From a virus (lineage: Duplodnaviria; Heunggongvirae; Uroviricota; Caudoviricetes), in the IMG/VR virus record IMGVR_UViG_2547132270_000006, positions 1 to 7,230 of that record: a DNA stretch of 7,230 bases, one strand, 5' to 3'. Made by a program: the position numbers and the translations under genes. This document shows, piece after piece, positions 3,916 to 3,929 of the stretch. The notes below the pieces were generated by a model. The model had not been told where the DNA came from and made no database searches. It was given only the letters and a program-made list of their open reading frames with translations. The stretch's first letter is position 1; each line of letters opens with the position of its first letter.

Positions 3916-3929
3916 TTTACGATCGTAAA
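3916..3929. promoter_or_regulatory. Perfect 14-bp palindrome TTTACGATCGTAAA (central GATC) overlapping a candidate sigma70-like promoter for the 69-aa gene
   Basis: Palindrome read directly. On the minus strand TTTACG (3929-3924), a 16-nt spacer and TATGAT (3907-3902) form a promoter-like arrangement about 75 nt upstream of the 69-aa gene start codon. Operator-like geometry. Confidence 0.3.

Follow-up and report, generated by a model that had tools for sequence, protein, structure and literature searches.

A 14-bp palindrome at the late promoter PR' of a lambdoid prophage, a putative recognition element for the Q antiterminator

The palindrome lies in the late-control and lysis region of a lambdoid prophage

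The stretch of DNA analysed here (7,230 nucleotides; hereafter, the window) comes from a lambdoid prophage and comprises its late-control and lysis region, which reads along the minus strand. In that direction, DUF968/HNH and RusA genes are followed by the gene for a Q antiterminator, the isrK/C4 region, an ORF6N gene, the palindrome that is the subject of this study, a terminator, cargo genes and the genes for holin, DUF1327, lysozyme and Rz/Rz1 (Table 1). The element formed by the palindrome, the promoter and the terminator (3929–3841) is located downstream of Q and upstream of the holin, lysozyme and Rz genes, on the same strand; the genes further downstream (919–3828) are the presumed targets of Q-dependent read-through.

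Several other features of the window deserve mention. The segment between Q and ORF6N (4563–4761, minus strand) resembles the anti-repressor control modules of P1 immI and of Gifsy-1 isrK, and a promoter-like sequence, TTGACC-18-TATATT, at 4784–4755, would serve as the isrK promoter. A second anti-repressor-like gene, of 198 codons (121–717, minus strand), is found downstream of Rz/Rz1; its product has no Pfam match, and matches phrog_26415 over its first 60 residues and, more weakly, Ant-type families. Between the PR' hairpin and the holin gene, the 69-aa and DUF2441 genes (3064–3828) make up a cargo. No copy of this cargo was found in 5,426 complete E. coli genomes, in which matches were obtained for only the initial ~100 bases of the query, a part that precedes the cargo; the window therefore probably derives from a different enterobacterial species or from a rare prophage.

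Table 1. Features of the window (window coordinates; positions with a sign are relative to the start of PR')
Feature	Position	Strand	Basis or remark
Q antiterminator gene, Q21/Q933W family	5184–4789	−	Pfam PF06530, E = 4.8e-52; proposed binder of the palindrome
isrK / c4-a1b1 / C4 RNAs and ORF6N module	4761–3947	−	Inserted between Q and PR'; outside the qut site
c4 a1/b1 target (c4-a1b1)	4761–4709	−	Rfam, 50.1 bits, above threshold
isrK RNA	4748–4672	−	Rfam, 77.3 bits, above threshold
C4 antisense RNA	4646–4563	−	Rfam, 71 bits, above threshold
ORF6N anti-repressor gene	4510–3947	−	Pfam ORF6N; phrog_2379, annotated anti-repressor
14-bp palindrome TTTACGATCGTAAA, putative Q-binding element (QBE) of qut	3916–3929	−	−34 to −21 of PR', centre −27.5
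−35-like hexamer TTTACG, left half of the palindrome	3929–3924	−	Promoter scan
−10 hexamer TATGAT	3907–3902	−	Promoter scan
Conserved block TAAGAGT, −4 to +3	3899–3893	−	Candidate sigma-dependent pause element
PR' start, +1 (A), inferred	3895	−	Homology to the Sakai Sp5 mapping
5'-end hairpin GUGGU-UACUAC-GCCAC, +2 to +17	3894–3879	−	Part of the minimum-free-energy fold
Intrinsic-terminator-like hairpin, tR' position	Stem 3870–3851, U-rich tail 3850–3841	−	Terminator scan
69-aa gene	3828–3619	−	ORF list; phrog_11414, no Pfam match
DUF2441 gene, convergent, inside the late span	3064–3603	+	Pfam; phrog_5663
P21-type holin	2794–2579	−	ORF list and Pfam
DUF1327	2595–2230	−	ORF list and Pfam
Lysozyme	1886–1353	−	ORF list and Pfam
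Rz/Rz1	1371–919	−	ORF list and Pfam

The palindrome is unique in the window

The initial annotation of this DNA had drawn attention to a perfect 14-bp palindrome with GATC at its centre, and the sequence confirms this: TTTACGATCGTAAA, read on the plus strand at 3916–3929, is exactly self-complementary, is the sole even palindrome in the window with arms of at least 6 bp, and has no second match in the window even when up to three mismatches are allowed. Neither a second copy nor pairs of half-sites were found in the window or in a whole phage genome; in phage mEp332 the motif occurs a single time in the 46-kb genome, and is located at PR'. The length of the palindrome by itself carries no significance: when the window was shuffled 500 times with its dinucleotides preserved, palindromes of at least 14 bp were present at a mean of 0.53 per shuffle, and at least one was present in 42% of the shuffles. 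A promoter scan paired the left half of the palindrome, TTTACG, with TATGAT across a 16-bp spacer, on the minus strand, and returned promoter-like sites in the region at chance level (two found; 2.1 expected). Since palindrome length and promoter-scan count are both at chance, the significance of the site comes from its context and from comparison with related loci alone.

That comparison reveals strong conservation. The ~90 nt that run from the stop codon of ORF6N to the terminator stem, palindrome included, are nearly invariant in E. coli prophage relatives, in which the ORF6N coding DNA is merely 84–90% identical to that of the window, and in about 140 related loci the palindrome is found again, always at the same place in the promoter. 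The palindrome was also considered as an RNA hairpin or terminator, and rejected: its fold is weak (−4.1 kcal/mol; z = −0.9), and the palindromes found at the same position with other types of Q (see below) are unable to form hairpins.

The promoter is PR' and is followed by an intrinsic terminator

The start of PR' in the Stx phages of Sakai was mapped by dRNA-seq (Sy et al.; PMC7547250). In Sakai Sp5, it is 258 nt upstream of the 3' end determined by Term-seq (tR'), and RNase E cuts the transcript between GU and AUU at +173 (PMC7547250). The 258-nt length and the RNase E cut agree on A746 of our Sakai Sp5 locus (L141) as +1; this is the A in TAAG[A]GTGG, 7 nt past TATCAT. As the window has the same motif 7 nt past its own −10, its start was assigned, by homology, to position 3895; relative to that start, the −10 hexamer spans −12 to −7 and the palindrome spans −34 to −21. 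PR' is reported to be constitutive in lysogens (PMC7547250), and by the same homology the window carries a σ70 promoter with a defined start that is active without Q. The proposal in the initial annotation that the palindrome overlaps the −35 of a σ70 promoter is thereby upheld, TTTACG being its left half, and the promoter can be named PR' from its homology to the Stx phages. Its attribution to the 69-aa gene, on the other hand, has to be abandoned; the promoter is PR', and a hairpin terminator intervenes between it and that gene. Relatives keep the −10 pattern TATNNT (TATCAT, TATCCT, TATGCT, TATTAT, TATGAT, TATACT or TATTCT), and the −35-like hexamer has the variant TTTACA in four of 44 distinct copies.

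The RNA predicted for 3895–3841 (55 nt) folds into a 5' hairpin and the terminator hairpin, with a free energy of −22.8 kcal/mol and a z of −4.45, and the short terminated transcript of PR' is predicted to measure ~53–55 nt. An intrinsic terminator is thus found between the promoter and the late genes; in relatives, its stems are kept and its loop is variable. The homologous first hairpin of Sakai is read through, as deduced from the existence of the 258-nt StxS transcript. In Sakai Sp5 this first hairpin (771–795 of L141), which has a clean U7 tract, lies inside the 258-nt StxS precursor; in the window, the hairpin at 3870–3851 is the only one ahead of the first gene, and its U tract is interrupted (GUGUUGUUUC). 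Given the read-through in Sakai and the interrupted U tract, the window hairpin may leak, and a leaky hairpin may permit low-level expression of the 69-aa gene in lysogens.

The 5-bp hairpin at +2 to +17 is kept in most of 33 distinct variants across the Q clades (see below), with G-C, A-U and G·U exchanges; it could act in 5'-end protection, in pausing or in something else. The block TAAGAGT, at −4 to +3, is among the most conserved positions in the elements of both clade 1 and clade 2. In the phage 21-type PR' of SfI, CATAAGCTG follows the start, and TAAGCT is comparable to TAAGAGT, which we regard as a candidate sigma-dependent pause element on the grounds of its conservation. An alternative candidate is TACTAC, at +7 to +12, in which the sixth base differs from one relative to another. 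In the early transcribed region, we found no convincing −10-like pause element with a conserved T at the sixth position. A known small RNA family over 3780–3990 was considered and rejected: no Rfam family reached its threshold there, the best, DUF3800-I, scoring 19.4 bits against a gathering threshold of 44.2 (E = 0.74), and isrJ was unmatched.

The homology between the window and the E. coli prophages stops inside the terminator loop, and the cargo differs beyond that point (four loci, L001–L004, compared with window positions 3780–3960). In those four loci, the cargo past the hairpin is a 65-aa protein with a DNA methyltransferase, or an OB-fold protein. Accessory genes seem to have been inserted repeatedly at the site just downstream of the PR' hairpin.

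The element follows Q and not the ORF6N or 69-aa genes

In about 220 related loci, the element is always found between Q and the late or lysis genes, whatever else is inserted there. Among loci taken from viral contigs, genomes and phage records, its distance from the upstream Q gene ranges from 14 to 3016 nt. In Sakai Sp5, BP-4795 and phiEC3198, TTTACGATCGTAAA begins immediately after the stop codon of Q, and is followed by TATCAT, by GATAAGAGTGGTTAC and then by the hairpin. In mEp332 the element comes after an nmpC gene on the opposite strand; in other loci it comes after isrK-C4-ORF6N, after isrK/C4 and a different protein of 187 aa, or after a protein of a further type, of 327–351 aa. The genes upstream of Q vary as well (NinG/NinH in the Stx phages; DUF968/RusA in the window), as do those downstream; Q alone is shared by every locus. 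In several lineages, the 3' end of Q closely adjoins the start of PR' or overlaps it; in APSE-3 (1504–1950 of L143), the annotated reading frame of Q passes through the GCGGTCCGC dyad and the putative promoter.

These loci bear directly on the view, put forward in the initial annotation, that the palindrome is an operator at which the ORF6N protein or the 69-aa protein represses the promoter of the 69-aa gene. In its favour, the site has dyad symmetry and overlaps the −35, and the ORF6N protein, whose gene terminates 17 nt upstream of the palindrome, is predicted to adopt a DNA-binding fold. However, palindrome and candidate repressor genes do not travel together. Phage mEp332 has the palindrome and, by tblastn, no ORF6N gene in its 46-kb genome; conversely, a Salmonella locus (L005) has an ORF6N protein 76% identical to that of the window, no detectable Q of the Q21 family and no palindrome. 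In several loci the palindrome follows anti-repressors of other types, and ORF6N proteins that range from 51% to 97% in identity all precede the same palindrome, provided that the Q is of clade 1. The 69-aa protein has no match in any of ~300 related loci. Moreover, the ORF6N protein falls in anti-repressor families, which act on proteins and not on DNA (PMC4825925). Stx phages have no ORF6N gene between Q and the palindrome, but some carry an ORF6N-like 'ant' gene elsewhere in the genome, so that these phages alone do not exclude ORF6N and the case rests on mEp332 and L005. Together with the absence of the 69-aa gene from the relatives, these two make the ORF6N and 69-aa proteins unlikely binders, and we consider repression of a 69-aa gene promoter by either of them highly improbable. 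An association of the palindrome with ORF6N itself was also examined and discarded: most of the ORF6N relatives in genome contigs are without the palindrome, which tracks the type of Q wherever Q could be typed. One E. coli hit (H23), a seeming case of ORF6N without the element, is a decayed prophage end with a pseudogene and is uninformative.

Three Q clades are paired with three palindromes

Three clades of Q proteins are paired with three palindromes that share the same centre, at −27.5/−28: TTTACG(AT/TA)CGTAAA, GCGGTCCGC and GCGTACGC. In clade 1, TTTAC[G/A]WWCGTAAA, and never another type, was present in every locus that had a Q at least ~62% identical to that of the window and enough downstream DNA. 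In clade 2, GCGGTCCGC or a near variant of it (GCGGCCCGC or GCGTTCCGC) was found in 77 of 77 loci, and the clade-1 site in none; these loci were gathered by Q homology alone and counted where the downstream DNA was usable. The clade-2 Q proteins are 46% identical to the window Q, and include those of an Stx2d phage and of APSE-3, a phage of an aphid symbiont. They come from a separate scan, since the scan of viral contigs with a Q alignment gave only close relatives. Clade 3 is represented by phage Stx2a_WGPS2 (WGPS2), which carries GCGTACGC. In all three, the centre of the dyad falls 15 nt ahead of the −10. The clades have almost the same sequence between the −10 and the terminator, GTTAAGAGTGGTTAC included, whereas neither the spacer from −20 to −13 nor the DNA on the upstream side of the dyad is constrained. 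In the clade-2 promoters (L227–L306; −45 to −35) we recognised no −35; a conserved A-rich block, AAAAAAT, and TTA/CTA are found just upstream of the GCGGTCCGC dyad, and may constitute an UP-like element.

Could the palindrome be promoter sequence only, with a left half that is the −35 and a right half that is an accidental or structural mirror without a ligand of its own? A palindrome of this length is expected by chance in 42% of such windows, TTTACG and TTTACA are both usable as a −35, and an asymmetric variant, TTTACAATCGTAAA, does occur, in four of the 44 distinct copies. Nevertheless, the right half is as invariant as the left, next to a spacer that is variable; the centre changes symmetrically, GATC being replaced by GTAC between otherwise near-identical elements (e.g., those of loci L071 and L059); and in clades 2 and 3 unrelated palindromes, which do not resemble a −35, occupy exactly the same centre. 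We thus judge a promoter-only origin of the symmetry to be unlikely. The operator-like geometry noted in the initial annotation survives to this extent: the dyad behaves as a protein site, as judged from its symmetric change of centre and from the palindromes of the other clades, but the logic appears to be that of antitermination by Q and not of repression.

It is similarly unlikely that the ligand of the palindrome is a different factor, linked to the Q module, be it a host or a phage protein, such as a silencer of PR' in lysogens. Covariation with the Q clade would be the same for Q and for a tightly linked partner, and the binding element of Q21 has a different architecture (see below). 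Against this, no gene other than Q is common to all loci and the flanking genes vary; a host factor would have no need of a different sequence for each of three clades, and one of the three is found in APSE, which infects Hamiltonella, a symbiont of aphids; and a silencer is at odds with the report that PR' is constitutive in lysogens (PMC7547250). Q and its site are inherited together, so that the covariation could partly reflect linkage and not recognition.

The window Q is 81–84% identical to the Q proteins of Stx phages, including that of a record labelled as the q-933 allele, and is distantly homologous to Q21, whose structure has been solved (6P18; E = 2.4e-7). In favour of a recognition of the palindrome by Q, the residues that are fixed differently in clades 1 and 2 are concentrated in the helix-turn-helix that resembles sigma region 4, which is the DNA-reading part of Q21 (bioRxiv 10.1101/651190). 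The one relative with a solved structure, Q21, speaks against it: the two 8-bp subsites to which Q21 binds are directly repeated within the promoter spacer, and do not form an inverted repeat over the −35 (bioRxiv 10.1101/651190). Subsites of this type are seen in the sequence of SfI as ATTGAGCA AATGAGCA. In the open literature we found nothing that names the 14-mer palindrome or defines the binding element of Q933-type proteins, and no binding or transcription data for the window Q, or for the Q proteins of these clades, on the palindrome.

The GATC at the centre is not conserved

Enterobacterial hosts have Dam, and it had been suggested that the central GATC could make occupancy or expression sensitive to Dam methylation. 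The window and 23 of the 44 distinct clade-1 copies have GATC as the centre of the dyad; the remaining 21 have GTAC (17 copies) or AATC (four), so that GATC is not a conserved feature at this position and Dam sensitivity is not a conserved or defining property of the element. Loci L059 and L071, with near-identical Q proteins, have related elements that differ only in GATC versus GTAC, and the palindromes of clades 2 and 3 have no GATC. From this pattern of substitution, the GATC is incidental to the dyad and not a designed Dam switch. A promoter, or a loading of Q, that is sensitive to Dam, possibly alongside recognition of the dyad by Q, is very unlikely as a general feature, although some modulation by Dam may occur in those copies that bear GATC.

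A putative Q-recognition element within PR'/qut

The promoter, its start position, the terminator, the constant position of the element and the strict pairing of palindrome and Q clade are established either directly or by homology to the mapped PR' of the Stx phages. The constant position between Q and the late genes, together with three clade-specific palindromes at a shared promoter position, makes a putative Q-binding element the most likely explanation of the palindrome. We therefore think it probable that the palindrome is the upstream, specificity-determining part of PR'/qut, recognised by Q for a Q-dependent read-through of the terminator; from sequence comparison, Q most likely binds the palindrome, presumably as a symmetric pair.

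In the mechanism that we propose, σ70 RNA polymerase would start at about position 3895 on the minus strand, using TTTACG as the −35 and TATGAT as the −10, and in cells without Q the transcripts would end, at least partly, at the hairpin, giving a short RNA of ~55 nt. Q, which is encoded 860 bp upstream, would recognise the dyad TTTACG-AT-CGTAAA, centred at −27.5, and would load onto a polymerase paused just after initiation. The Q-loaded polymerase would then pass the terminator into the 69-aa gene, the lysis genes and the later genes.

The element is a further copy of a known kind, the PR'/qut region of phages of the 933W/DLP12 type. What is modestly new, and inferred from sequence, is a dyad-symmetric Q-recognition element in at least three classes that are matched to the Q clades. 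A broader proposal can be made, tentatively, and we give it slightly less than even weight: that the Q proteins of the 933W/DLP12 branch read a dyad at −27.5, over the −35, presumably as a head-to-head pair, unlike the tandem protomers of Q21, and that they fall into at least three interchangeable specificity classes (TTTACGWWCGTAAA, GCGGTCCGC and GCGTACGC), from which one would predict the co-resident prophages, Stx phages included, that can activate each other's late genes.

The same palindrome is found at the promoter that drives Shiga toxin 1 and 2 in Stx phages, and also in many cryptic E. coli prophages. If it is a Q-recognition element, the class of palindrome would be a simple marker of the compatibility of Q and promoter; it would predict whether the Q of one prophage can trigger the late genes of another, and with them lysis or toxin production, and it would name the exact bases to mutate or to target. 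The annotation of the window changes too: on present sequence evidence, the 69-aa gene and the lysis genes would be late genes under antitermination control, and not a repressor-controlled unit.

Comparison with known systems

The closest likeness is to PR'/qut of the Stx phages (933W, Sakai Sp5 and Sp15, H-19B and BP-4795), the source of StxS. The 14-bp palindrome is identical, the −10 follows the same pattern, the TAAGAGTGGTTAC start region and the first hairpin are the same as in the window, the Q proteins are 81–84% identical to that of the window, and the promoter is constitutive, with a start mapped by dRNA-seq (PMC7547250). There are also differences. Q and PR' are separated by 860 bp with isrK/C4/ORF6N in the window, whereas the palindrome abuts the stop codon of Q in the Stx phages; the −10 is TATGAT in the window and TATCAT in the Stx phages; a single hairpin precedes the first gene in the window, whereas in the Stx phages a leader of 258 nt runs to a second terminator; and the cargo consists of the 69-aa and DUF2441 genes in the former, and of tRNAs and stx in the latter.

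With PR'/qut of phage 21 (PDB 6P1A and 6P18; Yin, Kaelber and Ebright, 2019), the window shares a Q of the same family (PF06530) with a helix-turn-helix that resembles sigma region 4, a recognition element (putative in the window) upstream of the −10 and inside the promoter, a terminator that follows, and a TAAG block near the start (TAAGCT in the phage 21 type, TAAGAGT in the window). However, the window Q is only ~24–35% identical to Q21, and the Q21 site consists of subsites repeated in the same orientation within the spacer (about −27 to −12), whereas the window has an inverted repeat at −34 to −21, over the −35. Direct-repeat subsites of the Q21 type were not found in the spacer of the window, in which −20 to −13 is not conserved. 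The Q21-family member of the window thus probably reads DNA in a manner different from that of the one solved structure.

The order antQ-isrK-orf45-anrP-isrJ in Gifsy-1 of Salmonella (Hershko-Shalev et al., 2016; PMC4825925) is also that of the window: a Q-like gene, isrK, a small ORF or C4-like RNA, an anti-repressor and a short terminated RNA. In Gifsy-1, the short terminated RNA after the anti-repressor is IsrJ (PMC4825925; PMC2330248); the Rfam model of isrJ has no match in the window. IsrJ, of 74 nt, has its own start and terminator, is highly expressed in lysogens and sits after anrP, which corresponds to the position of PR' and its hairpin in the window. By analogy with its published description, IsrJ may be the short PR' transcript of Gifsy-1.

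Finally, the element resembles classical repressor operators in that a perfect inverted repeat covers the −35 hexamer. Unlike these, elements of the window type are present in one copy per phage and have no co-occurring cognate repressor gene; they are paired with a clade of antiterminators and followed by a terminator, and the logic that we propose for them is one of activation by read-through.
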